DNA of 64,000 nt, from assembly GCA_964016885.1 (NCBI GenBank), contig OZ024741.1, forward strand, positions 355,074,001 through 355,138,000. Direction: 5' to 3'. The first letter of the stretch is position 1; each line of letters opens with the position of its first letter. This DNA is from Eledone cirrhosa. Taxonomy: Eukaryota. Positions 141 through 61,104 of this stretch are shown here, one piece after another. The notes beneath the pieces were generated by a model. The model made no database searches, was not told the DNA's origin, and saw only the letters and a list, made by a program, of their open reading frames with translations. The position numbers and the translations under genes were made by a program.

Positions 141-1244
141 GTGATTATTTGTTTGTTTCATTGTTTTTTTTACGCTAAACTCCACTAGTTGCAGACTGTG
201 CATCAACATGAGATATTTTCCTCTATGTTGATGCATAGTCTGCAACTGTTTCATTGATTATCTTAAAACAGTGGTTCTCACTTTTTGACCTGCGACAATT
301 TAAACTGAAATCAATCTTAACAGTCTTGGAGGGCCTCCAAAAGTCATGGGCACAGCCACTTCCTCCGAACGTAGACCCCCCCCCCCCCCCCACACATACA
401 CACACACACGCGCACAAAATATATATAAAGATGGTAATGAAATATTTTCTGAGTCTATGTGTATCTATATCATCATCATCATGAATCACTGTTTTGTGTC
501 CATTCTTCCATGTTAGCATGGGTTAGACGGGTTGTCCTGTTGTGGGCAATGCCAGGTCAGGTGACCATGTCTTGCTCACAGAACTGATTTTGGCTTGATT
601 TCTACAGCTGCATGCCCTTCCTAACACCAACCTCATTTACAGTGAGTACTGAGTGCTTTTTATTGTGGCACCTACACAACCATTTTACAGTGTGGACTGG
701 GTGCTAGATGAAGACCCAACTAGGTCTGAGAATCAAAGGTCTTTATAATTTTTTCAGTTTACAGGGAACTTTGTATTTTTAGCATATTTATAAGTCTTTA
801 TATTAAAAATGTGTATGTATACACATTAGCACAGTCTTAATTACTCACTCTGTATATATACAGATATAACTTTATTGTACACTTCAGCTGCTTAGCACAC
901 TTCTTTATATATATATTATATATATAAAATAAAGGATAAAGATCCCATAACTCCTTGTGGAATCGTAAAGGCACCGTCATACGGCGTGTCTAGGGCACAT
1001 TTAAACCCGGTGGTGCTCAACACTCTCCAAGTCTGAACACAGCCAATTTTTTCTATAGAGGAAGAATCGACCCTAGTACTGGACTGGTACTTTTTTTATT
1101 GACTTTGAAAGGAAGAAAGGCAAAGTTGACCACGGTAGGATTTGAACTCAGAACATGCAATGAAGTAGGACGAATACCGTAAAGCATTCTATCTGACATC
1201 TTAACGACTGCCAATTCACCACCTATTATATATATATATATAAT

Positions 1245-3817
1245 AGACTTCTTGAATTTTGTGATGCAAGTACACTGACTATTTGCAACACAAACTTCCA
1301 GAAACCTGCCAATCACCTAATAACCTACAAATCTGGCGAGCACATAAGCCAGATTGACTTCTTACTAGTTAGGCAGCGGGACAGGAAGATAGTGTCTAAT
1401 ACCAAGGCATACCCTGGGGAAGAATGTACCCCACAGCATAGGTTAGTCGTTAGTGATATCTCAGTAAGCAAGAGATGGAATGAGACATACAGGAAGGTGT
1501 GGAGAAGAAAGGTCTGGAAGCTAAAAGACCTTTCACTAAAATACAAATTTAGGAAAGCCCTTCAAGATGTATATGACGAAAAAGAAGACGATTTAGAGAC
1601 GTATGACATAGATAATAACTGGAATTTCTTAGTGACAACTTACTGCAGGCTACTGATGAAACTTGTGGCTGGAGCAGAGCTCCAACCAGACAGAGAGTGA
1701 CTTGGTGGTGGAACAGCACAGTAGATAAGGCCATTAGAGACAAGAGACTAGCATGGAACGCTTGGAAAAAGGGTGGGAGTAGGGAAGAATATACAGCCGC
1801 TAAGAGAGAAGCTAGACGTCAGGTGTACTTAGCATGCAGAGAGGCTGAGAGTAGGAGGTTTGCCAATGTTCTGCGACGGGAAGATCAGAGGCGTGCGATG
1901 TTCCACATTGCAAGGCAGTGTGTCAATGCAAATCAGGATGTTGTTGGAGATAAATGTGTCCGGAATGATGCCGGTGTACTTAGTGTCACGAATGATCAGA
2001 AAAAGGAGGCCTGGAAATGTCATTATGAGAGACTGATGAATGTGGAGAACGAATGGGAGAGAGAGAAATTACCCTTAGTAGATCCGACAGAGGGACCAGC
2101 TATTGAGATTGACGAATATAGGGTCCAAGAGGCGATTAGGGAAATGAAAAATGGTAAGGCTGCTGGACCATCGGGAATAGTTGCTGAGATGCTGAAGGCA
2201 TCTGGGGACGTAGGCACTAAACTGGTTGCACGCATCATTAATCAGGCTATATATGGTGGTGTCATACCCAAAGACTGGTGCAGCAGTATTCTCATAAATT
2301 GCTACAAAGGTAAAGGGGATGCTCTGGAGAGGAGCAATTATAGGGGTATAAAACTGATGGATCAAGTTATGAAAGTGGTAGAAAGGATATTAGCACAACT
2401 AATTAGAGAAAGGGTCAAACTAGATGAGATGCAGTTTGGTTTTGTGCCTCGGAAAAGTACAACAGATGCCCTCTTCATAGTGAGGCAACTACAAGAGAGG
2501 TTCTTAGAGAAAAATAAGCCACTATACTTAGCCTTTGTTGACCTAGAGAAGGCCTTTGATAGGGTACCCCGATCTGTCATCTGGTGGTCCCTAAGGAAAC
2601 TAGGTGTTGAGGAATGGCTTGTGAGGACAGTGCAAACTTTGTACAGAGGTACTGTCAGTAAAGTCAGGGTAGGAATGGAGTTTAGTGAGGAATTCCAGAT
2701 ACAAGTAGGAGTACATCAAGGTTCGGTCCTCAGCCCACTCTTGTTCATTATAGTCCTCCAAGCTATAACAGAGGAGTTTAAGACTGGCTGTCCATGGGAA
2801 CTTCTCTATGCTGACGATCTGGTTCTTATAGCAGAATCAGTAGAGGAGCTAGAGAATAAATTCTGGCTATGGAAACAGCAGTTGGAAGCAAGAGGACTGA
2901 GAGTGAACCTAGCTAAGACAAAAGTGTTGAGTAGAAAAGAGGACAAAACTCTGATTCCGTCAGGGAAATGGCCATGTTCTATATGCAGAAAAGGAACTGG
3001 CATAAATTCTATAAAATGCACACAATGCAGATCCTGGGTACACAAGAGATGTAGCGGGATAGCAGGCAAACTAACAGGTAGGGAGAAATATGTATGCAGT
3101 AGATGTACAGGGAAATTAGACAGTAGAAGTCGCATTGATAGACACATTTTTCAAATGCAGGCGGGTGCTATAGAAGTGATGGATAGCTTCCGGTACCTAG
3201 GAGATCAGATTAACATGGGGGGAGGTGTTCCGAGGCCATAGTATCTAGAATAAGGACGGGTTGGAAGAAGTTTAGGGAGCTACTTCCTCTGCTGACGAAG
3301 AAGGGTTTCTCCATGCGTACGAAAGGCCAGTTATATGATGCCTGTGTGAGGAGCGCGAAGCTGTATGGTAGTGAGACATGGGCAGCAACTGCAGAGGATA
3401 TGCGACGGCTGGAGAGAAATGAGGCAAGTATGCTCCGTTGGATGTGCAGTGTCAATGTGCGTGAACGACTCAGCATGAATGTGTTGAGAGAGAAACTGTG
3501 TCTGAGAGGGATAGAATGTAGTGTGCGAGAGAGGAGACTGAGGTGGTATGAACATGTGATGCGCATGGAGGATGACTGATGAGTGAAGAAGTGCCAGGAA
3601 ATGCCAGTTGAAGGAAGACGTGGTAGAGGTAGACCACAAAAAACATGGGTGGAGGTGGTGAGAACAGACCTCAGATCGCTGAAGCTCACGGTGGAGATGA
3701 CGAAGAACCGTGACGAGTGGAGAGGACGAAGAACCGTGACGAGTGGAGAGATGCTGTGCTGAATAAGACTCGTCCCACCCTTGCAAGCAGGGAAGAGCGG
3801 ACGTAAAATGATGATGA
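1245..3817 (+). mobile_element. RTE-clade LINE, 5'-truncated, lightly decayed (end of AP endonuclease, RT, PHD-like finger)
   Basis: ORF 1697-3241 with YRGIKL, QFGF, FVDLEKAFD, GVHQGSVLSP, LLYADD; QIDFLL endonuclease end; (ATG)n tail; frameshifts near 1690 and 3235, stop at 3577. Confidence 0.95.
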
Positions 3818-3824
3818 TATATAA

Positions 3825-8250: not shown

Positions 8251-8255
8251 AATAG

Positions 8256-8575
8256 TGAAGGCGTGTGGCTTTGTGGTTAGGGAATTCAGCTCACAATTGT
8301 AAGGTCATGAGTTTGATTCCTGCCAGCGCGCTGTGTCCTTGAGCAAGACACTTTAATTCACGTTGCTCCAGTTCACTCAGCTGGCAAAAATGAGTTGTAG
8401 CTGTAATTTGAAGGGTTAGCCTTGTCACATTCTGTGTCATGCCGAATCTCCCTGAGAACTACGCTAAGTGTACACATGTGGAATCTCAGCCACTTGCACG
8501 TTAATTTCACGAGCAGGTTGTTCCGTTGATCAGATCAACTGGAACACTCGTCATCATAACCGATGGAGTGTCCTC
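8256..8575 (+). mobile_element. tRNA-derived SINE; relatives at ~11730-11880, 17665-17780, 22065-22315, 51475-51606, 58330-58570
   Basis: A-box-like TGGCTTTGTGG, B-box-like GTTTGATTCC, central TGTGTCCTTGAGCAAGACAC. Confidence 0.75.
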
Positions 8576-10588: not shown

Positions 10589-11124
10589 GTGAGTGTATTT
10601 TTTTTGTACTCATAAAAGTTTTACATTATGTATTTATTTATAGATGGTGGGAATAGAAAGTGATAAATAGTGTGAAGAGAAATGGAATGAGATGGCTGGG
10701 TTATGTGTTGGATAGTTAGGGGAAAATGAAAGTGACTGGGTGAGAAGGGTGACGGAATAAAGTCAGCATGAATGTTGTGAATTAAAATTGAATGAGATGG
10801 CTGGCTCATGTGTTGAGGAAGGATGAAAGTGACTGTATGAGAGGGGTGATGGATTAGAGTCAGCATTGTATGTTGTGAATAGAAATTGATTGAGATGGCT
10901 GTATCATGTGTTAGGGAAGGATGAACATGACTGTTGAAGGAGGAGGAAGACCAAGAAAAATATGACTAAAGATGATAGAGGAAGAATTGAAAGCTAGAGA
11001 GTTGATTATGAGGGTGGGGTTGCAGAGAATATGGGAAAATGGTGAAGCTTAACATGGGTTTAGCTAGTTTAAGCCTTGCTTTAGCAAGGAAAATGGCCTT
11101 AAAATGCTTGTTGTCTATTTCCAG

Positions 11125-11240
11125 ACTTATATGGCTCTTGCAAAAGGAGCCATGGTTCCAGACCATGTCCTTATACTCCCAATTGGTCATTACCAATCTA
11201 CTGTTGTGGCACCAAGTGAAGTTGTTGAAGAAATTGAGAA
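11125..11240 (+). CDS. CWF19L1: CWF19L1 exon ([39 protein letters not shown])
   Basis: ttccag acceptor; ALAKG...[13 protein letters not shown] signature; followed by the ATATCCTTT U12 donor. Confidence 0.95.
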
Positions 11241-12520
11241 ATATCCTTTTTTTAAATTTCCTCACAGCATGTACCTATAGTAATCCAGGCAGTGCACCTC
11301 ATCCTCATCCTCATCATGAACATTATCCACTACCTCCTCTTCTTCCTTCTCCTCCCCCCTCCTCCTCTTCCTTCTGCTTTCTTCTCATCCTCCTCCTGAG
11401 ATGGCTATTGGAGACAGAATCCTCAAATACACCTTCCAGAGGGTCCTATCAGAACCTACCATCTTTAAATAATCCAGCTGGATCCCTAAGTGAGCTTATG
11501 GAATTTATCCAACCATCTTGCTCATGGTCTACATCTGGGTTTCCTGTCGGTTGACTTCATCTGTAAAATCAGGCAGTGCACCAACTAAGGAAATCAAACC
11601 ATTTAAGAAAAAAAATCATGTCTTAACCTATTTGATACCAAACTGTTTGAAACTGCCCTTGGTTCAATGATTCTGAGCTGTTTATTTTAACATGTTTATA
11701 GTTATCAAAAAACATTCCATCATAATTGATGGTGCATGGCTTAGAAGTTAGTGTGGTTGACTCATGATTGTAAGGCTGTGAATTTGATTCCTGAATTGAA
11801 CAGCACATTGTGACTTTGAGCAAGACACTATATTTTACTTTGATCTGTTCCATTCTGCTGGAAAAAAAACCAGTTGTAATGTTACTAGTGTCAAACTGTA
11901 TCCACTTTTTCCTCTCTCTTTTCAACATTTGTGCTAGGGGGGAGTGGAGATATGCATGCATGGGTGACAGCTGGTCTTCCACAAAGCACCTTGCCCAGGC
12001 TTCAAGAGGAACTTTCCTGGTGCAAATACATGGTCTATGAAAGTGTACTTTCCTCCTCCTCCTCCTCCATGTCGTGGGGGCAGAGTCCTCAAACCCTCCT
12101 TCCAGCAAATCCTGTCGGAAGCAACCATCTGCAAACTGATCCAGCTGGAACCCCAAGCGAGACCAGCCAAACTCATGGATGTTATCCAACCATTTTGCTT
12201 GGAGTCTGCCTATGAGTTTCCTGCCAGTTGGTTTTGCCCACAAAATCTCTCCATTGATTCTTTCCTCTATAAGAAAACTTTTTTCCATTTCTTTCTCTCC
12301 TTACTCTCATCTACCTTTCTATTTCTTCTGTCTCTCACTTTATCTTCTGATCAACGACTAATGTCTGAAACATTCTCTATCATTCTCCTCTGTTGTTTTT
12401 CCTCAGACTTTTTGCATCTATACATACATATAAACATACATATATACCATATATATATATATATATATATATACACAAATTTTATATATTTGTATTTATT
12501 TACCCTTAATAATGCTCCAC
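11241..12520 (+). other. U12-type (minor spliceosome) AT-AC intron
   Basis: 5' end ATATCCTTT, branch-site-like CCCTTAAT at 12503-12510, terminal AC at 12519-12520; splicing restores ...EIEK-YKSNL... in frame. Confidence 0.92.
12045..12265 (-). mobile_element. RTE-like LINE 3' fragment
   Basis: KPTGRKLIGRLQAKWLDNI...DR..W motif. Confidence 0.6.
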
Positions 12521-12614
12521 ATATAAGTCCAATTTAAGAAAATATTTCAAGAGTCTGGGGAAAGTTGTGGTTTTCTTTGAACGAAATTACAAGACATCAC
12601 ATCTTCAGATACAG
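12521..12614 (+). CDS. CWF19L1: CWF19L1 exon ([31 protein letters not shown])
   Basis: FERNYK.HLQ.Q signature; AC acceptor, gtgaga donor. Confidence 0.94.
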
Positions 12615-13390
12615 GTGAGAAAAATTTCCACATATCATCATCATCATGATGACCACTTGCTTACATGGGTCAGACAGGTTGTCATGTTCTGAGGCTTGAT
12701 AAGTTGTCAGTATTGCCAAATTGATAGGTAAATGCTCTAAATTTAGGTCAAAGTCATACTAAAAAGTGACAATATTTTGTTCAAATGCACCCAAAAAATA
12801 AGCTTAAGATAAAAATATGAAATATTAGGTAAGCATTTGTTATGAGGCAAATATAGCTGGTAAAACATTCAAATAGATTTTTAAAAACATAAAGATCATG
12901 ACATACCATATTTTTAATCAAAATCAAAGAATTCTAAATTAAAGCTCTCTTCTAAAACATGGAACCTGTTCTCAACATTTTCTTCTGGAGTCCAGTTATA
13001 GGTATTTAGTGTTCCTGTTTTCTGTAAGATATTCTTTGGTAATTTTTTACTGAAGCAGCATTTATCATTATACTTTAAACAATATTTTACAGATAAAATT
13101 TCTCTTAGTCTTTAACGTCTTACTATTGTGTAATTTGGAATAAACAATATTCATGACACTAAAAATTCTTTTTAGATTAGCATGTGAATGTGGCAAAATA
13201 AGTAGTTTTAATGCTAAATCAGAAAGTTTTTTGAAAACATTTTCTCTGACAGAATCTCTATACAAAAAAAAAAACTCTGGCCAGAATGAAATTATATTTG
13301 AAACTTCAACCCGGGGTACATTCTGTAGCTGCTTCCATTGGAAGGTTATTTTAGTTATAGTTGCATCATTTTCATAAAAATGTTGTTTAA

Positions 13391-14041
13391 TCTATATATA
13401 AATTTGAACGACTTTCGTCTGTTCGTTCTTCCGTCACACGCTAGGGATCATTGAGGAAAGAAGGGGTGATGACATCACAGACTAGAAATGATTGAGGAAG
13501 GAAGGGGTGATGACATCATTCACTAGAGATAACTGAGGAAGGAAGGGGGTGATGACGTCATGCACTAGAGATGATTGAGGAAGAAAGGGATGATGACATC
13601 ACACCACACTAGAGATGATTGAGGAAGGAAGGGGTGATGACGTCAATCACTAGAGATGATTGAGGAAGGAAGGGGTGATGACGTCACACACTAGAGATGA
13701 TTGCGGAAGGAAGGGGTGATGACGTCACACACTAGAGATGATTGCGGAAGGAAGGGGTGATGACGTCACACACTAGAGATGATTGCGGAAGGAAGGGGTG
13801 ATGACGTCACACACTAGAGATGATTGCGGAAGGAAGGGGTGATGACGTCACACTAGAGATGACTGAGGAAGGAAGGGGTGATGACGTCACACACTAGAGA
13901 TGACCGAGGAAGAAAGGGTGATGACGTCACAAACTACAGAAAACAGGGTCTAACATTCACTACACTTGTGTGAACAATCTACATACATGCATACACATAC
14001 GCATATACACATATGCATCAGCATGTTGAAACAAATTCTAG
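13391..14041 (+). mobile_element. Non-autonomous Helitron-like element carrying a ~39-41 bp minisatellite
   Basis: Starts TC, ends CTAG, sits between host A and T with no TSD; removing it rejoins the transposase frame (KPAILD-IKQHFYEN). Confidence 0.75.
13441..13937. repeat. Minisatellite CACTAGAGATGATTGCGGAAGGAAGGGGTGATGACGTCACA, ~12 units
   Basis: Direct inspection. Confidence 0.95.
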
Positions 14042-14457
14042 TGTCTAGAATTGCAGGTTTAATAGGTTTAAGAGGCATTAAGACATACCAAAATGTTTAA
14101 TGAATTCTAAAATTTGAAATTATCTGGTAGTTGCTTTTTAATTAATTTTCCAAGCCCTATGACACATTTAATGCATCTTTTGCTCATTTTATTTTCTGCT
14201 TGTTCAGGAAATTTATATTAGGAGAAGTCATTTTCAAACTGAAAACCAAGGTAGTATTTTCAGCTTACAAAATCTAGAAGACATTCATCTTGCTTTAAAT
14301 GTTTCCTGATTTAAGAATAGTTGAACTAAAAGTGACTTTATATTGAAGATCATTCAATAACTTTGTTGGATTTTGTATTTGAGCCTCAAAAGCTTTGCTA
14401 ACTCTTTGCACTTGAGAAAGTTATTGTTTAAAAAAAGACATGAAAATAAAAAAAAGG

Positions 14458-14931
14458 TCTGTCTTGTGTTGTTATGTCTGTTGATCTGTTGATTATCTGA
14501 CCCTGTGTTGTTATGTCTGTTCATCTGTTGATTATCTGTTTTATGTTGTTATGTCTGTTGATCTGTTGATTATGTTTTGTGTTGTTATGTCTGTTGATTA
14601 TCTGTTTTGTGTTATGTCTGTTGATCTATTGATTATCTGTCTTGTGTTGTTATGTCTGTTGATCTATTGATTATCTGTCTTGTGTTGTTATTTCTGTTCA
14701 TCTGTTGATTATCTGTTTTGTGTTGTTATGTCTGTTGATCTGTTGATTATGTTTTGTGTTGTTATGTCTGTTGATCTGTTGATTATGTTTTATGTTGTTA
14801 TGTCTGTTGATCTGTTGATTATCTGTTTTGTGTTATGTCTGTTGATCTATTGATTATCTGTCTTGTGTTGTTATGTCTGTTGATCTATTGATTATCTGTC
14901 CTGTGTTGTTATAACTGTTTATCTGTTGATT
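14458..14931. repeat. ~38 bp minisatellite (TGTGTTGTTATGTCTGTTGATCTGTTGATTATCTGTCT)
   Basis: Direct inspection; continues degenerately after the SINE to ~15190. Confidence 0.9.
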
Positions 14932-15224
14932 AGAGGGTCGGACGCCATGCTTTACAGCACAGAGTTACGGCCCTTTGTGGTCTGAGTTCAAATCCCTCTG
15001 AGGTTAACTTTGCCTTTTATCCTTGTGAGGTCGATAAAATAAAGTACCAGTAATACACTGGGTGATTGCTGGCCTTGTGCCTAAAGTAGAAAAAATTATC
15101 TGTCCTGTGTTGTAATGTCTGTTGATTATATGTCCTGCATTGTTTTGTCTATCAATTATCTGTCTCTAGTTGTTATTGATTATCTGTCTATTTATTTCTA
15201 CTGTTCTGTTTGTTCTTTCTGTAG

Positions 15225-15338
15225 GCCATTCCTGTACCTGCCACTCTTTCATGTAATATTAGTGATGTTTTTACACAATTTGCAGAGGAGGAATCAATTG
15301 ATTTGAATGAAATACCAAAACACTCTGATTTAAAACAG
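15225..15338 (+). CDS. CWF19L1: CWF19L1 exon (AIPVPATLSCNISDVFTQFAEEESIDLNEIPKHSDLKQ)
   Basis: ctgtag/gtaaat sites; 38 codons; IPVP...EIP.HSD.KQ. Confidence 0.93.
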
Positions 15339-16049
15339 GTAAATATTGAAATATCTAGAGGTGATAGGTTTGTTAACATACAGCCTATTGGAATAATTAT
15401 GTATGTAAGGACTCTTAACTCCAGATGGAGCCCATCCTTTTTCAAGTCTAAACGCAACCAATTGCTTCCAGAGAAGGAGAGAGAGAGTAATAGAGAATAA
15501 TTGAGAAAGAGATATAGAGGAAGAATTAACCCCAGCACTGAACTGATACTGTTTTTATCAACTTCAAAAGGATGAAAGACAAAGTTGACTTCAGCAGGAT
15601 TTAAACTCAGAGAGTGCAGAGAACTGGAACAAATTGCACAAAGCATTCTGATACCGTACCAAGTCATCACCTATATTGGGATAATTACAAAATCATTTAA
15701 AAAGTGCAATGTTGCATGGTTGTGAATGGACAGTGAATGCAGAGGATATGCAAAAGCTAGAGAGAAACAAATTGATCATACTTCAATGAAAGATATAGCA
15801 TGGATGAGCAGAGAAAAAATTTAGGCATAAGAGGAATCAAATGTTGCCTGCTGGAGAGAAGACTGCACTAGTATGGTTATGTGATATGCATGGATGATGA
15901 TCGTTGAGTGAAGACATGTCCAGAGATCCCAGTGGAAGGAAGCTACAGTAGAGGAAGACCAAAGAAAACATGGAAAAGCAGATATAAAAATATTGATGAT
16001 CATCTCTTCATGAACTTGTATATTTATGGTAACTAATTCCTTTTTGCAG

Positions 16050-16147
16050 ATTGTTAAGGTCGAGGCACCATATTTCTATGCAGAAGTACCAACAGGAGAG
16101 AAATATCTCTGCAGAATATCAAAAGGTTTTCCATTACAGTTTGGCAG
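16050..16147 (+). CDS. CWF19L1: CWF19L1 exon ([33 protein letters not shown])
   Basis: ttgcag/gtaatt sites; YFY.E..TGEK...FPLQFGR signature. Confidence 0.95.
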
Positions 16148-17455
16148 GTAATTAAGTGGAAGTTATTAATTCATATATATAATAAATTGGAGTGTATAAG
16201 TTGACCTAGCATACAAGTCGATTTTAAGATTTTTAGTTCAAAATTCTGTTAGCTCTATACCTACTGTATTGGTAGACCATACAAACATACATTAGGTTGT
16301 ACAGTGGCTGATTATATTGGTGATTGTCTTTGAGATATTCTAACTGATTATTATAAAGTAAAACTTGGTTGTAGACCTACAAAATACCTAAGTAAACCTT
16401 ACTCATAGCATTGTCTTGACTAATGACTGTAATATACATACTGCATATTATAGCTAGTAAAACACCTACAGAAACCAAAACCTTCTGCTCCTATCTGCCA
16501 TTTGCATCAGTGATGTAAACAAACAGTTAGAGATGCTACCAACTACATGCAGCCCACTGCAAAATATGTCTACCATGCAGCCATAAAGATTCGCACCACA
16601 TCCTAACCTAATAAATCAACCCTTGGTTTGGGAGTAATTTTTAGGGCAGTTTAAGAAGTTGATTTATATGTCACAATTAATGTTAAACATAGCATGACCA
16701 AGTGAGTTAAAACAAGAAACAGGTCTAGGAATTATATCTGTGTTAAAGCGATGGCCTATTTCAGTGGTTGTTGTGCATCGAACATAACCAAATGGTTAAA
16801 AGTTCATTTTGTCAGTTTTGATTCACTTCATGGCATTTTGGGTACATATCATTTACCAGTCTTGGTTCAATCAAAGCTTTTGAGTGAAATTGGATAGACA
16901 GAAACTAATTTTGTCAGATGGATTGTATTTATAATTTATAGGGCTAGCTTTGCCATGCTAAATTTCCTTGAGAATTTACATTAAGGGTGTGCATATCTGT
17001 GGTATTCTCAACCACTTGCACTATTATACAAGATGGACTGTACTTGTAATTCATGCTGATTATTCCTAAGAATTATGTTAAAGGTATTTGTGGAATTCTC
17101 AGCCACTTATACGTTTATTTAACAAGCAGGTTGTTCCATTTGGTTGAATAATTGGAACATTCAATGTCAGAATCATTTCTACCATTTAACTCTTTTATTA
17201 CCATATTTTTAATGAAACACACTATTTTCATAATTATTTGAAAATCATAAGTAATCAAGAATTTGGAGGGATTTAATGATATAGCTAACATTCATATTAT
17301 TAAGTTGGTGTTTAGAAAATAACTTAACAAAGATTCTTAGATAAAATTATGATGGAAGGTTTTTATAAATAGTTTTGTATTGTAGAACCAGAAGTGATTT
17401 GATATGAAAGGGTAAATTAACATGTTCCAATATGAAGATTTTGGTTTATTTTCAG

Positions 17456-17600
17456 AGATATCCTGGCTTCTCCAATGCTACTTAATATGCCTGAACGTAT
17501 CGACTGGAAGAATTGTAAAGAAAGCCAAGAAGATGAAAAACAAATGACTCAAGAATTTAAGAAAAATTTCAAACACTTCGATTTTAATTTTAGCTCTTAG
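17456..17600 (+). CDS. CWF19L1: CWF19L1 last coding exon (DILASPMLLNMPERIDWKNCKESQEDEKQMTQEFKKNFKHFDFNFSS*)
   Basis: ttcag acceptor; LAS...LN.P...DW..C...F...F..FDF C-terminus; TAG at 17598-17600. Confidence 0.95.
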
Positions 17601-48107: not shown

Positions 48108-48385
48108 ATTAAATATACTACCAAACACTGTTAATTATATCATAATTTAATTTACATATGTTTCATCCTAATAAGCTCATCAGAATTAAATAAGATATAG
48201 ATACCTCAACAGATTCATCTTCTCTAAAAACATTATGTACTGTTTTTTATGGTGCGTTATGTTTTTAGATGAGATGAGTCTGTTGAGGTATCTATATCTT
48301 ATTTAATTTTGATGAGTCCTATTATGATGAAAGATATGTAAATTAAATTATGATATAATTAACAGTATTTAGTAATATATTTAAT
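48108..48385. repeat. Fold-back element with a minimal hammerhead in each arm (48145-48191 -, 48301-48348 +)
   Basis: Arm consensus ATTTAATT CTGATGA GTCCT-ATT-AGGAT GAAA CATATG TA AATTAAAT. Confidence 0.75.
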
Positions 48386-48961
48386 ATATATATATGTGTG
48401 TGTGTGTGTAATTGAAAATGAGTACCAGCAATAGCTGGGAGTTTAACCCTGCAATGAACTGGCATCCTGTCCAGGGGGCAGTATTGTACTCTCAGTCGCT
48501 TAACACTATGGAAACCAGGATAAGCACCAGCCTGATGACCCTCTGGGCTTGAGACAGACTTTAGACTTAGATATCTATATATATATACGATGATAAAATG
48601 CACCTAGTACACTCTGTAAAGTATTAACATTGGTGCCATGATTAAATACACTCAGTACATGCTGTAAAGGTTTAGTGTTGATGCCATGATAAAATGTACC
48701 CAGTCCACTCTGTAAAGTGGTAGTGCTGGTGTCACAAAAAATATACCCAGTATACCCTGTAAGGTACCAGTTTAGGAAGGACATCCAGCAGTAGAAACTA
48801 TACCAAATATGGAACGTAACAAGCAAGATGGGTTGCTCCAATCCATCTTGTTTCAGACCATGACAACCCATCCAACACATAACAATGATGATGATGATGA
48901 GGAACATACATACAAATGTAAAAAGACATAAAATACAATATATAAAGGCAAGTATCCATAC

Positions 48962-51033: not shown

Positions 51034-51609
51034 ATACATAGATAGATACACACACACACATACAGACGCACGCACTAACACACACACACACACAAACAAA
51101 CTTGTGTGTGTGTGTCTGTGTGTGCCTTGTTGGTACAGAAAGAATTTTGTCTCCAGTTTTTATTGCCGGATCAAGGGCCACTGCTCTTTTCAACAACGTC
51201 AAATAACAACGCCATATATATCATCATCATCATCATTTTACGTCCGCTTTTCTCTGCTTGCAAGGGTGGGACGGGAACTGATTCTGGCTTGATTTCTACA
51301 GCTGGATGCCCTTCCTAACACCAACCTCATTTACAGTGAGTGCCGGGTGCTTTTTTTCCGTGGTGCCTACACGTCCACTTTACAGTGTGGGCTGGGTGCT
51401 TTTTTGCTGTGGCACCTCCACGTCCACTTTGCAGTGGAATGATAGGGACCCCAGTCCCTATCATCTCATTTCTACAGCTGAGTAAACTGGAGCAATGTGA
51501 AATAAAGTGTCTTGCTCAAGGAAACAACACATCACCTGGTCTGAGAATTGAACTCACAACCTTTCGATTGCAAGCCCAATGCTCTAACCACTAAGCCATG
51601 TGCCTCCAC

Positions 51610-52480: not shown

Positions 52481-52765
52481 TTTAAGTTAACAATGAAAAT
52501 AAAAAGAACAAAGTCAAGTTACTTCATAACTTTGTTTTTATTTTATTGTTTTTATTTTTATTGTTAATTTAATACCTAATATCTGACTCTGTATCTAAAG
52601 AATTAATTCAGCGAAACACAGAACTTCTCTATGGATTTTACAAGATTACATTGAGTCCTATCTACGGTACGGACCCTACCACCAGAGGTAGACAGACTGA
52701 AAAAAGAAAATATATATATATATATGTGTGTCTGTGTGTGTATAATATATATATATATATATATA

Positions 52766-53956
52766 ACGATAAATTAACGGAGGCATAGGCCGTCGTTATT
52801 CCCTGTAAATAATGTGCTCAAAGGGGAAGAGATCCTGAGCCCTTTAAAATATAATATGTTGAGAAGGTAACACACCAGAGAGAGATATATAGTGCGCTAT
52901 CAATAATACAGGGAAAAAACCACCAGTGTATGGAATCTATAACCTATGAAAGGCAGACTATAGACACGATAATTAAAAATATAAATTAAAGCGTAAATAA
53001 ATACCTCTATAACTATATAACACACGTACAAATCCAAAGATATGTTTCACCAGAAAATTTGTTGAAAGAAATGGTAGTCTCGGTTCATCAGCGTGTGTAA
53101 GGCTATACATCTCAGACAACACTAAGAGAATTTTACAATTGACTGTCCAGCTACACGTGGGAGAGAGAAGTCACAGCGTGTTTAAGGGCAGTGAACCAGT
53201 GGCCTCTGAGAGACGAACTGCTAGAAAGGGCAGCCCAAAGCCACTCAGAGAGGAGTGCTCAACCAAACAGAGATAGGAAAGACTGTTGTTAGGAGCGAAA
53301 TATCACGATAAATTAACGGAGGCATAGGCCGTCGTTATTCCCTGTATTATTGTTTTTTCCCTGTATTATTGATAGCGCACTATATATCTCTCTCTGGTGT
53401 GTTACCTTCTTAACATATTATATTTTAAAGGGCTCAGGATCTCTTCCCCTTTGAGCACATTATTTACAGGGAATAACGACGGCCTATGCCTCCGTTAATT
53501 TATCGTGATATTTCGCTCCTAACAACAGTCTTTCCTATCTCTGTTTGGTTGAGCACTCTTCTCTGAGTGGCTTTGGGCTGCCCTTTCTAGCAGTTCGTCT
53601 CTCAGAGGCCACTGGTTCACTGCCCTTAAACACGCTGTGACTTCCCTCTCCCACGTGTAGCTGGACAGTCAATTGTAAAATTCTCTTAGTGTTGTCTGAA
53701 ATGTATAGCCTTACACACGCTGATGAACCGAGACTACCATTTCTTTCAACAAATTTTCTGGTGAAACATATCTTTGGATTTGTACGTGTGTTATATAGTT
53801 ATAGAGGTATTTATTTACGCTTTAATTTATATTTTTAATTATCGTGTCTATAGTCTGCCTTTCATAGGTTATAGATTCCATACACTGGTGGTTTTTTCCC
53901 TGTATTATTGATAGCGCACTATATATCTCTCTCTGGTGTGTTACCTTCTCAACATA

Positions 53957-53967
<11 letters not shown>
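52766..53967. mobile_element. Retrozyme-like non-coding element B: 539 nt monomer, inverted pair of slightly-more-than-monomer arms in (TA)n
   Basis: ACGATAAATTAACGGAGGC at 52766 and 53305; GTTTTTTCCCTGTATTATTG at 53352 and 53891; arms are near-perfect reverse complements with different permutation. Confidence 0.85.
53713..53791 (+). ncRNA. Type I hammerhead ribozyme with extended stem III; antisense copy at 53020-53098
   Basis: ACACACG/CGTGTGT stem I, CTGATGA, ACC(G)AGA...TCTGGT stem II, GAAA, CATATC-TTTG-GATTTG stem III, GUA. Confidence 0.85.
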
Positions 53968-53995
<28 letters not shown>

Positions 53996-55103
53996 ACATG
54001 GTGGATGCCAACTCGTTTTCGAGTACGGCCACTACTTTATATCCAGAACTCCTACCGATGCGCTGAACGAGTGTGACTTTTTAGTCCAGCCAGCGACGTG
54101 AAAACTCTGGTACAAACACTACACTTGTGACAATTATTGACACATAGTGCTGCGCCCATGGTACCATGTGACGACAAGTGCAGAGAGATCTCCAGATATA
54201 AAGCAATGCCTGTGCCGTGAAGCTTTTATAGTGAGCAAAGGCACTGCACAAAACCAGTCCCACTCTCTTAACCAAGATGATATTTACCAAAAAGAAGAAC
54301 AAGTCAACATCATTGGATACCATCAGAGTTGCAGGTGTTATATCAGAGTTTTCTTTCTCCTAGAATTCTGCCTTGACAAAGGCTAAGGGGTCATCTCTCC
54401 CGGTGATTTTGGATGGCCATTGACTCTTAAGAGCTCCTTTTCCCTTTGACAGGTTTTGTTTTTAGTCCTGCAGGATGTCCAAAGTCACCCTCCTCACCAA
54501 GAAACCTTGGTGGGGTTGCCAGTTTAGTCACCAACGACCCGACCATGAGACAGGTTGTACTGGGATACATGTTACCAGTAGCACTAACTGGTGACCTGAC
54601 ATATATATATCTACATACATACATACATTTATATATATACATGCATTTATATTTAAGTGTGTAAGGATGTTGACATGTTTTCTTTCTTTGGTAAGGAGAG
54701 AATTTTGTCTCCAGATTTTATTACCTAGGGAGATTAAATACCACAGCTCTGGCTGAAAGCTGACCAGCTTCTCAACCTCATCAAACACCAACACTGGCCT
54801 GTGTGTGTATATGTGATGTGTGTGTGTGTATGTATGTACGTATGCATGTGTGTGTATGATTGTATGTATGTTACACCCACACCTTTCATCACCATTGCTT
54901 CTTTTTCTTGTCATTTCTGTTGCTCTTGTAACTGTTGTAAAAGTTGTCCTTATTTTCATTTTCTTTGATTTCTTTCAATTTTCTTTTATCTCCCTAGGGA
55001 ATTCGTTGACAAGCTTCTTTTATTTATTTTCTTCGTTTTCTTCATTTAAATGCATTCATACTGGCTGTCTCAGAGACGTACAAATATGGCTTATTAAACT
55101 TAC

Positions 55104-59367: not shown

Positions 59368-60069
59368 CTAGAAAAAGCAAAAATATATAGTAACAATTTG
59401 CTTAAACTTAAACCCTGTTCAAATAATAAATATTTGCCATATGGCTATATATATATTATTGCATACATGAACTTATATATATACTACTGTCTTTGATAAT
59501 ACAGGCTTCTGCAGCTACCAACTAAATTTCAATCAAAAGGCATAACTAAACGAACACACAACATATACAATATATCTATTTATCTCCTTCCCCACCTCTC
59601 ACTATCTCTTTATCTACTGATTGTTTGGAGGGGGAAGGGTTGTGCACATGGCCCTTTTCAGAGCAACCTCAAACTGGAAGACCTGGCCTGAGTGTTTGCA
59701 ACACAGTGGACTCTGCACCTAAGTTCTGGTGATGGTGTTTAACGAAGTGACAGATTAAGTCTACCACTGAAGTAGACCACAGCCGTATTTGAACTCAGAA
59801 TATCGAGTCAGAACAAGCACTACAAAGCATCTCACTCGATGTTCTAATAATTTCACTAATCCACCTTCTTGGACATGCACTTTATTTTATCAACCCCTGA
59901 AAGGATGAAAGGCAAGGTTGGTCTCAGTGGGATTTGTGGAATTTTAGTAGAAAATGCCAGAACTAGTAATGATGCAAGATTGATCTTGGATTAACAATAA
60001 CTAGCCTCCAGCTTTCACTCTACACTGTCTCTGATAATAAATCTACTGGATTAAGATTGACTTAAAGCT

Positions 60070-61104
60070 AAACAACAACAACCAGCCTCCAACTCTCTCT
60101 CTCTTTACTCCCTAAAAGGACAATATTTACTTTTGAAATGTCTTTGATCTTTGATTAAACAACAACCAGCCTCCAACTCCTTCTCTCTTTACTCCCTAAA
60201 AGGACAATATTTACTTTTGAAATGTCTTTCATCTTTGATTAAACAACAACCAGCCTCCAACTCTCTCTCTCTTTACTCCCTAAAAGGACAATATTTACTT
60301 TTGAAATGTCTTTGATCTTGGATTAAACAACAACCAGCCTCCAACTCCTTCTCTCTTTACTCCCTAAAAGGACAATATTTACTTTTGAAATGTCTTTCAT
60401 CTTTGATTAAACAACAACCAGCCTCCAACTCCTTCTCTCTTTACTCCCTAAAAGGACAATATTTACTTTTGAAATGTCTTTCATCTTTGATTAAACAACA
60501 ACCAGCCTCCAACTCTCTCTCTCTTTACTCCCTAAAAGGACAATATTTACTTTTGAAATGTCTTTGATCTTTGATTAAACAACAACCAGCCTCCAACTCT
60601 CTCTCACTCTTTACTCCCTAAAAGGACAATATTTACTTTTGAAATGTCTTTGATCTTTGATTAAACAACAACCAGCCTCCAACTCTCTCTCACTCTTTAC
60701 TCCCTAAAAGGACAATATTTACTTTTGAAATGTCTTTGATCTTGGATTAAACAACAACCAGCCTCCAACTCCTTCTCTCTTTACTCCCTAAAAGGACAAT
60801 ATTTACTTTTGAAATGTCTTTCATCTTTGATTAAACAACAACCAGCCTCCAACTCTCTCTCTCTTTACTCCCTAAAAAGACTATTTACTTTTGAAATGTC
60901 TTTGATCTTTGATTAAACAACAACCAGCCTCCAACTCTCTCTCTCTTTACTCCCTAAAAGGACAATGTTTACTTTTGAAATGTCTTTGATCTTGGATTAA
61001 ACCACAACCAGCCTCCAACTCTCTCTCTCTTTACTCCCTAAAAGGACAATATTTACTTTTGAAATATCTTTGATCTTTGATTAAACAACAACCAGCCTCC
61101 AACT
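60070..61104. repeat. 84 bp minisatellite, ~12 units
   Basis: CAATATTTAC at 60121, 60205 ... 60541 (5 x 84). Confidence 0.95.

Follow-up and report, generated by a model that had tools for sequence, protein, structure and literature searches.

A 539-nt non-coding hammerhead unit inserted as an inverted pair in an octopod genome: a likely non-autonomous Penelope-like element with retrozyme features

Organization of the locus

The 64-kb window (i.e., the whole stretch of DNA analysed) harbours exons of a gene for CWF19-like protein 1, two RTE-type LINE copies, an ORF of which has its best named animal match in Octopus bimaculoides (65 %), a hAT transposase fragment, a tRNA-like stretch, a tandem array and hammerhead-bearing elements (Table 1). 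The matches of the LINE ORF and of one CWF19-like exon point to an octopod as the probable host. One of the latter, termed element B (52766-53966), is an inverted pair of arms made from a single 539-nt unit; its right limit lies at 53966, with position 53967 already belonging to the TA flank.

Table 1 Coordinates of features in the 64-kb window
Feature	Position	Strand	Remarks
Element B, arm 1	52766-53346	-	581 nt; offsets 113-693 (read 53346 to 52766); 42-nt terminal repeat
Element B, arm 2	53352-53966	+	615 nt; offsets 0-614; 76-nt terminal repeat (partial tandem/pseudo-LTR)
One 539-nt monomer for analysis	53352-53890	+	start point arbitrary; non-coding; many-copy family
5'-5' junction	53338-53371	.	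15-nt stretch present twice (53338-53352 and 53357-53371)
Left (TA)n flank	52743-52765	.	abuts 3' end of arm 1
Right (TA)n flank	53967-53994	.	abuts 3' end of arm 2
Type I hammerhead motif, arm 1	53020-53098	-	sequence identical to arm 2 motif; predicted cut 3' of 53027
Type I hammerhead motif, arm 2	53713-53791	+	cut predicted after 53784
Element A	39628-40695		right arm 634 nt, 104-nt terminal repeat, ends in (TA)n; left arm about 439 nt, inverted
Probable coding Penelope-like element, 5'-truncated	about 40884-46392		(TA)n at both ends; an older relative at 32466-32898
Arms of GIY-YIG-bearing element	41015-41557 and 45850-46392		identical over 543 nt, inverted
GIY-YIG-like ORF fragment	41553-41939		Pfam E 0.008, below cut-off; Atlas feature score 0.97 to GIY-YIG cluster
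Hammerhead-like motif of GIY-YIG-bearing element	41060-41215	-	stem II region about 110 nt
CWF19-like protein 1 gene, exons	11068-17597	+	two best matches of one exon: Argonauta hians, Octopus sinensis
LINE copies with reverse transcriptase and PHD-like finger (RTE-type)	1197-3818 and 36278-38665		88 % alike
hAT transposase C-terminal dimerisation fragment	13071-13391	-
tRNA-like stretch	51541-51598	-	at Rfam threshold; also matches 8252-8397; probably SINE head
Tandem array	59980-61104		period about 84 nt

The 539-nt period is evident from two pairs of direct repeats (53352-53427/53891-53966 and 52761-52807/53300-53346), which provide arms 2 and 1 with partial-tandem (pLTR-like) terminal repeats of 76 and 42 nt, respectively. 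With unit offsets numbered from 53352, offsets 0-112 are missing from the first round of arm 1 and offsets 615-693 from arm 2, the 3' end of arm 1 reaching beyond that of arm 2 by 79 nt of the unit (one-sided "tail"). The element contains an inverted, 5'-truncated copy joined at its 5' end, and a (TA)n microsatellite adjoins it on both sides, within which a target-site duplication is not resolvable. Alignment of the arms over 502 positions reveals 3 differences (99.4 % alike), and the repeats at the two ends of arm 2 differ at 1 of 76 positions; these four substitutions are too few to judge A-to-I editing as a source of the differences between the arms.

The unit has a GC content of 39 % and no ORF for a reverse transcriptase (RT) or GIY-YIG endonuclease on either strand, the longest stop-free stretches of its circularised form comprising 65 (sense) and 87 (antisense) codons. 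A search with nhmmer, using the unit as query, matched only this locus, i.e., neither further copies of the unit nor an autonomous Penelope-like element (PLE) resembling it were found in the 64-kb window. A bacterial promoter scan yielded chance-level results and is not applicable to this host. The preliminary description of this DNA, which had proposed an inverted pair of 539-nt units with arms slightly longer than one unit and starting at different points, few arm differences pointing to recent insertion, and absence of a long ORF, is borne out in all these respects.

At the head-to-head junction, the first 9 nt of the duplicated 15-nt stretch correspond both to the reverse complement of the 5' end of arm 1 and to sense offsets 5-13, since the unit contains an internal inverted repeat (offsets 5-13 versus 113-121). 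On the simplest reading, the junction represents a microhomology join, with a short slip, of two cDNAs that grew inward from two DNA ends.

Comparable layouts are found elsewhere in the window. Element A has the same anatomy, with a 530-nt non-coding unit, a hammerhead with palindromic short stem III and a 100-nt tail; no homology between elements A and B is detectable (best BLAST E 0.49). Within the window, a 9-nt motif (12/13 nt when extended) is confined to elements A and B (53811, 53000, 40146, 40676 and 39747), where it follows the hammerhead cut site at a distance of 27-42 nt; its positions match, its BLAST score is at chance level (E 1.7), and it is a possible candidate for a shared protein-binding signal. 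An old head-to-head pair of minimal hammerheads at 48105-48388 (86 % self-complementary, ending in an AT-rich repeat) represents a typical PLE stump.

Since unrelated hammerhead families share the inverted layout here, inversion is the local rule for Penelope-type insertions rather than a peculiarity of element B. The same arrangement is described as the ordinary insertion pattern of PLEs (Craig et al. 2021, PMC8557442; Arkhipova et al. 2013, PMC3846280).

Hammerhead motif and copies in sequencing runs

Each repeat unit carries one type I hammerhead, judged by core letters and three stems; with one motif per arm, the locus contains no two hammerheads in tandem. The core comprises a 7-bp stem I, CUGAUGA, GAAA and GUA at the predicted cut, stem III has six pairs and a single U-U mismatch, and stem II is formed by four contiguous pairs (extendable past a mismatch; loop II of 21-28 nt), the first being A-U in place of the usual G-C. 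A strict descriptor matched twice in the window, once per arm, and never in 150 simulated 64-kb sequences. With Rfam models, no hammerhead reached the gathering score anywhere in the window, and none was found at E values up to 10 in 52700-54000; matches to microRNA families in the latter region were dismissed, being far below threshold and reflecting the inverted repeat and the TA runs.

For this copy, the folding prediction places the catalytic hammerhead structure 2.7 kcal/mol higher than the minimum-energy fold (P about 0.004), with pair probabilities of about 0.01 for stem II and about 0.27 for stem III. Letters found in other copies strengthen both stems, raising P to 0.009-0.037; these estimates take no account of tertiary contacts or proteins. 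The circularised unit folds at -128.8 kcal/mol, compared to -110.8 ± 6.3 kcal/mol for 60 shuffled sequences (z = -2.8), and the hammerhead is absent from this minimum-energy fold. Self-cleavage is thus plausible for the family and putative for this copy, and the designation "intact" in the preliminary description applies to the core letters but not to demonstrated folding, the catalytic fold being disfavoured and Rfam silent. A 2-nt insertion at 53784, found in 2 X1 contigs and in 35 of 470 X15 reads, could represent a ligation scar, a jump scar or a plain stem I variant.

Seventeen sequencing runs were screened, 13 of which contained some of the stretch, with no RNA run among these, a result that carries no information on expression; four (X1, X4, X6 and X15) were mapped on the monomer, while six runs with shares of 0.07 or less were left out of the mapping. 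X1 may be the window's own sample, whereas X4 and X6 (other organisms) and X15 (other study) are independent. The unit was matched by 1858 of 16.3 million contigs in X1, 2538 of 12.5 million reads in X15, 7 contigs in X4 and 4 in X6, covering 30 of 30 bins in three runs and 28 in X6. The wrap joint, leading from unit end to unit start (back by 539), was present in all four runs and hence in three organisms (4 contigs in X1, one each in X4 and X6, 41 reads with 14 different starts in X15), indicating head-to-tail continuity at period 539 to be a family trait. Pieces listed from the runs are short, none spanning the whole unit.

These data bear on a reading already raised at the outset, according to which the unit forms no more than the pLTR, i.e., the hammerhead-bearing end, of a long coding PLE, and element B consists of two 5'-truncated ends placed head to head. 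Such an origin would agree with reports that most PLE hammerheads in genomes belong to truncated ends, some of them paired on opposite strands at distances of 100-700 bp (Cervera and de la Pena 2014, PMC4209133), as well as with the layout of the GIY-YIG-bearing element in the window, which equals that of element B. It is nevertheless quite unlikely: the period of a coding PLE is the whole element (about 3 kb, PMC4209133) but amounts to 539 nt in both arms here, every unit position is crossed without break, the wrap joint recurs in four of four runs, and stem III is long, unlike that of the minimal palindromic hammerheads of animal PLEs (PMC4209133). Among the 16 of 244 loose ends listed, those with high agreement lead into diverged versions of the unit or AT repeats and share no common exit, while a coding element may adjoin the unit in a minority of cases among the other 228. 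Because the period is the unit itself, a pLTR-only origin does not account for element B.

Opposite-strand joints at other positions were encountered four times among the joints listed. The readable one (X6 record 18) connects two 5' ends, situated at 53771 and 53454, so that the inversion is seen again with 5' ends that vary. It is extremely unlikely that the inverted pair arose as a fold-back artefact of assembly or library preparation, given inverted joints of the family in independent runs, arms that differ at several sites and overhang each other at both ends, and the structured microhomology join. Palindromes are indeed a source of chimeric reads, and the exact junction of element B is absent among the joints listed from the four runs.

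With respect to 3' ends, X4 record 9 stops at 53511 and continues into an AT repeat, at most 5 nt from the equivalent of the arm 1 3' end (53506), and X4 record 13 stops at the same place. Together with X6 record 18, these records indicate that 3' ends recur while 5' ends vary. The ends described at first as circularly permuted are accordingly better read as preferred 3' start sites combined with variable 5' truncation.

Letters at 53557 and 53523 are common to both arms and rare in the family, and only 420 of the 1858 X1 contigs and 118 of the 2538 X15 reads are 99 % alike, suggesting that both arms stem from one template lineage and one recent event; letters at 53411 and 53645 are hardly found outside arm 2. 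In X15, 68 % of the mapped reads continue into unlike sequence, and no read pile-up sits at the hammerhead cut site. Pile-ups do occur at 53497/53500, 53674/53679 and 53827/53837, but these positions are AATT sites, and the pile-ups were dismissed as artefacts of a restriction library. The summed depth in X1 averages 103,000 (10 bins) upstream of the 3' sites and 41,000 (11 bins) just downstream, a drop that is weakly suggestive of 5' truncation, with divergence as a confounding factor and depth not representing copy number. Pattern scans gave no match in metagenome, viral and prokaryote genome contigs.

Proposed mechanism of insertion

Element B probably represents a recent single insertion of a non-coding unit mobilised in trans by a PLE protein, i.e., a non-autonomous PLE working like a non-LTR retrozyme. 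PLE insertions are characterised by partial tandems, inverted 5'-truncated copies, a one-sided tail and a bias for microsatellites (PMC8557442). From the observed unit, arm lengths, junction, flanks and family, and from the recurring wrap and inverted joints, we infer the enzyme, the order of steps, the ribozyme activity and the form of the RNA as follows.

Firstly, the GIY-YIG endonuclease of an autonomous PLE would cut both strands of AT-rich DNA, in this case the (TA)n microsatellite. Such an activity, including extension of both strands, was described for the purified PLE protein of anole (Frangieh et al. 2024, PMC11167929). Secondly, each DNA end would serve as primer for reverse transcription, which would begin at either of two preferred positions inside the RNA; the anole protein likewise initiates at two internal RNA sites located downstream of the hammerhead (PMC11167929). 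The 3' ends of element B are located 182 and 261 nt downstream of the predicted cut site, and priming at two different sites would result in the 79-nt tail on one arm; PLE tails usually measure 30-40 bp (PMC8557442).

Mobilisation of the unit by another retroelement (e.g., an RTE-type LINE), or its amplification as a satellite by recombination with the inversion arising from repair, is very unlikely. RT-bearing LINE copies do reside in the window, LINEs are named as possible helpers of retrozymes (Cervera and de la Pena 2020, PMC7229834), and satellite-type expansion is discussed for the latter (Li, Clavereau and Pollet 2026, bioRxiv 10.64898/2026.07.22.740005). However, element B has neither poly(A) nor a 3' end shared with the LINEs (no nhmmer match), and two outward 3' ends directed into (TA)n together with a one-sided tail are PLE features (PMC8557442).

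Thirdly, on the PLE-based reading, synthesis of each cDNA would proceed back across the hammerhead site and extend over slightly more than one unit. Since each cDNA crosses the cut site and exceeds one unit, the template should have been continuous across this site. It may have been a ligated circle, which has close to an even chance, or an uncut head-to-tail or partial-tandem transcript, which is quite possible though somewhat short of that, while cut monomers linked by precise jumps appear improbable. The anole PLE mainly used uncut RNA as substrate, and mutation of the ribozyme did not impair insertion (PMC11167929), and 8 of 9 Xenopus retrozyme dimers were not cleaved in vitro (bioRxiv 10.64898/2026.07.22.740005). 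The original proposal of reverse transcription around a circular or multimeric RNA thus holds insofar as both arms were copied through the hammerhead site for more than one unit and the wrap joint is found in all mapped runs, whereas DNA alone gives no choice between circle and uncut multimer.

Finally, the 3' ends of the two cDNAs would anneal via the 9-nt inverted repeat with a 15-nt slip, yielding the head-to-head pair; head-to-head PLE joints with short overlap are on record (PMC3846280). Provided that the unit was mobilised by a PLE, this last step may alternatively have involved fold-back (self-priming) of one long cDNA, with the palindrome centre being subsequently lost at the 9-nt microhomology, a possibility that is doubtful but deserves consideration. 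Self-priming was proposed for head-to-head PLE inversions (PMC3846280), and a cDNA reaching from offset 693 to 0 or beyond could have served as template for arm 2, in agreement with the high similarity of the arms. Yet an added central deletion would be needed, because neither arm contains the other, and extension from both strands is demonstrated in vitro for the PLE protein (PMC11167929), arguing for two inward-growing cDNAs.

Beyond the single locus, one may tentatively propose that octopods contain many-copy, ribozyme-made circular RNAs of ~540 nt, retrotransposed by Penelope-like enzymes that use the two ends of a single DNA break to copy around the circle. If the circle reading were true, element B would provide the first direct footprint linking retrozyme circles to the PLE machinery, and its long, near-perfect inverted arms would constitute a ready source of double-stranded RNA in these animals, in which A-to-I editing is known to be heavy.

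The identity of the autonomous element responsible for moving animal retrozymes, and the role of the circle as template, are still being argued from co-occurrence and pLTR similarity (PMC7229834; bioRxiv 10.64898/2026.07.22.740005). A young many-copy family combining the full Penelope signature with cDNAs longer than one unit renders both questions testable with one genome and one RNA sample.

Comparison with known retrozymes and Penelope-like elements

Element B shares with metazoan non-LTR retrozymes (PMC7229834; bioRxiv 10.64898/2026.07.22.740005) the small non-coding unit, a GC content below 50 %, the absence of LTRs, one type I hammerhead per unit, head-to-tail continuity, many copies and a self-paired predicted circle; moreover, its cDNAs exceed one unit as predicted by the retrozyme model (PMC7761336). 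It differs in (i) lacking a full tandem dimer, having two 1.1-unit arms inverted in (TA)n instead, and (ii) its long loop II, the A-U pair at the base of stem II and the 6-pair stem III. The unit is larger than the 150-450 bp given in PMC7229834, where a mussel retrozyme of 350-390 bp serves as mollusc example. It does not, however, qualify as unusually large, as suggested initially, since consensus lengths of 51-972 bp (mean of 650 bp in ray-finned fish) were reported more recently (bioRxiv 10.64898/2026.07.22.740005). The same preprint derives animal retrozymes from PLE ends and calls the mechanism unresolved, so that neither the size of element B nor its link to PLEs is new.

With respect to hosts, octopods are absent from the main texts of both retrozyme studies (PMC7229834; bioRxiv 10.64898/2026.07.22.740005), the text of the preprint containing neither a mollusc or cephalopod nor a discussion of inverted insertions, and no cephalopod is named in the texts of PMC4209133 and PMC6155905. 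The repeat annotation of Octopus vulgaris lists 31 recently active Penelope-like families, with ribozymes unmentioned in its main text (PMC13282606). In agreement with the preliminary description, no report of a cephalopod retrozyme or hammerhead-Penelope element was found in the literature covered, which contained few subscription journals. Element B would extend such elements to a cephalopod host.

Endonuclease-bearing PLEs likewise form partial tandems and inverted, 5'-truncated head-to-head copies with short overlap (PMC8557442; PMC3846280), and they share with element B the one-end tail, the AT-rich or (TA)n target and the hammerhead upstream of the 3' ends (PMC8557442; PMC11167929). In contrast to PLEs, element B contains no ORF and has a period of 539 nt rather than about 3 kb (PMC4209133), a tail of 79 rather than 30-40 nt, and a full stem III instead of a minimal palindromic hammerhead.

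The non-autonomous Chlamys PLEs (e.g., MRC1; PMC8557442) resemble element B in being non-coding, forming pLTRs and inserting head-to-tail. They are, however, green-algal, mostly devoid of canonical hammerheads and homologous to an autonomous family (PMC8557442), whereas element B has no such homologue within the window. It displays four of the five features of a non-autonomous PLE, the fifth being homology to an autonomous family. Element B is not a new class of element, since every part of it has a published counterpart.
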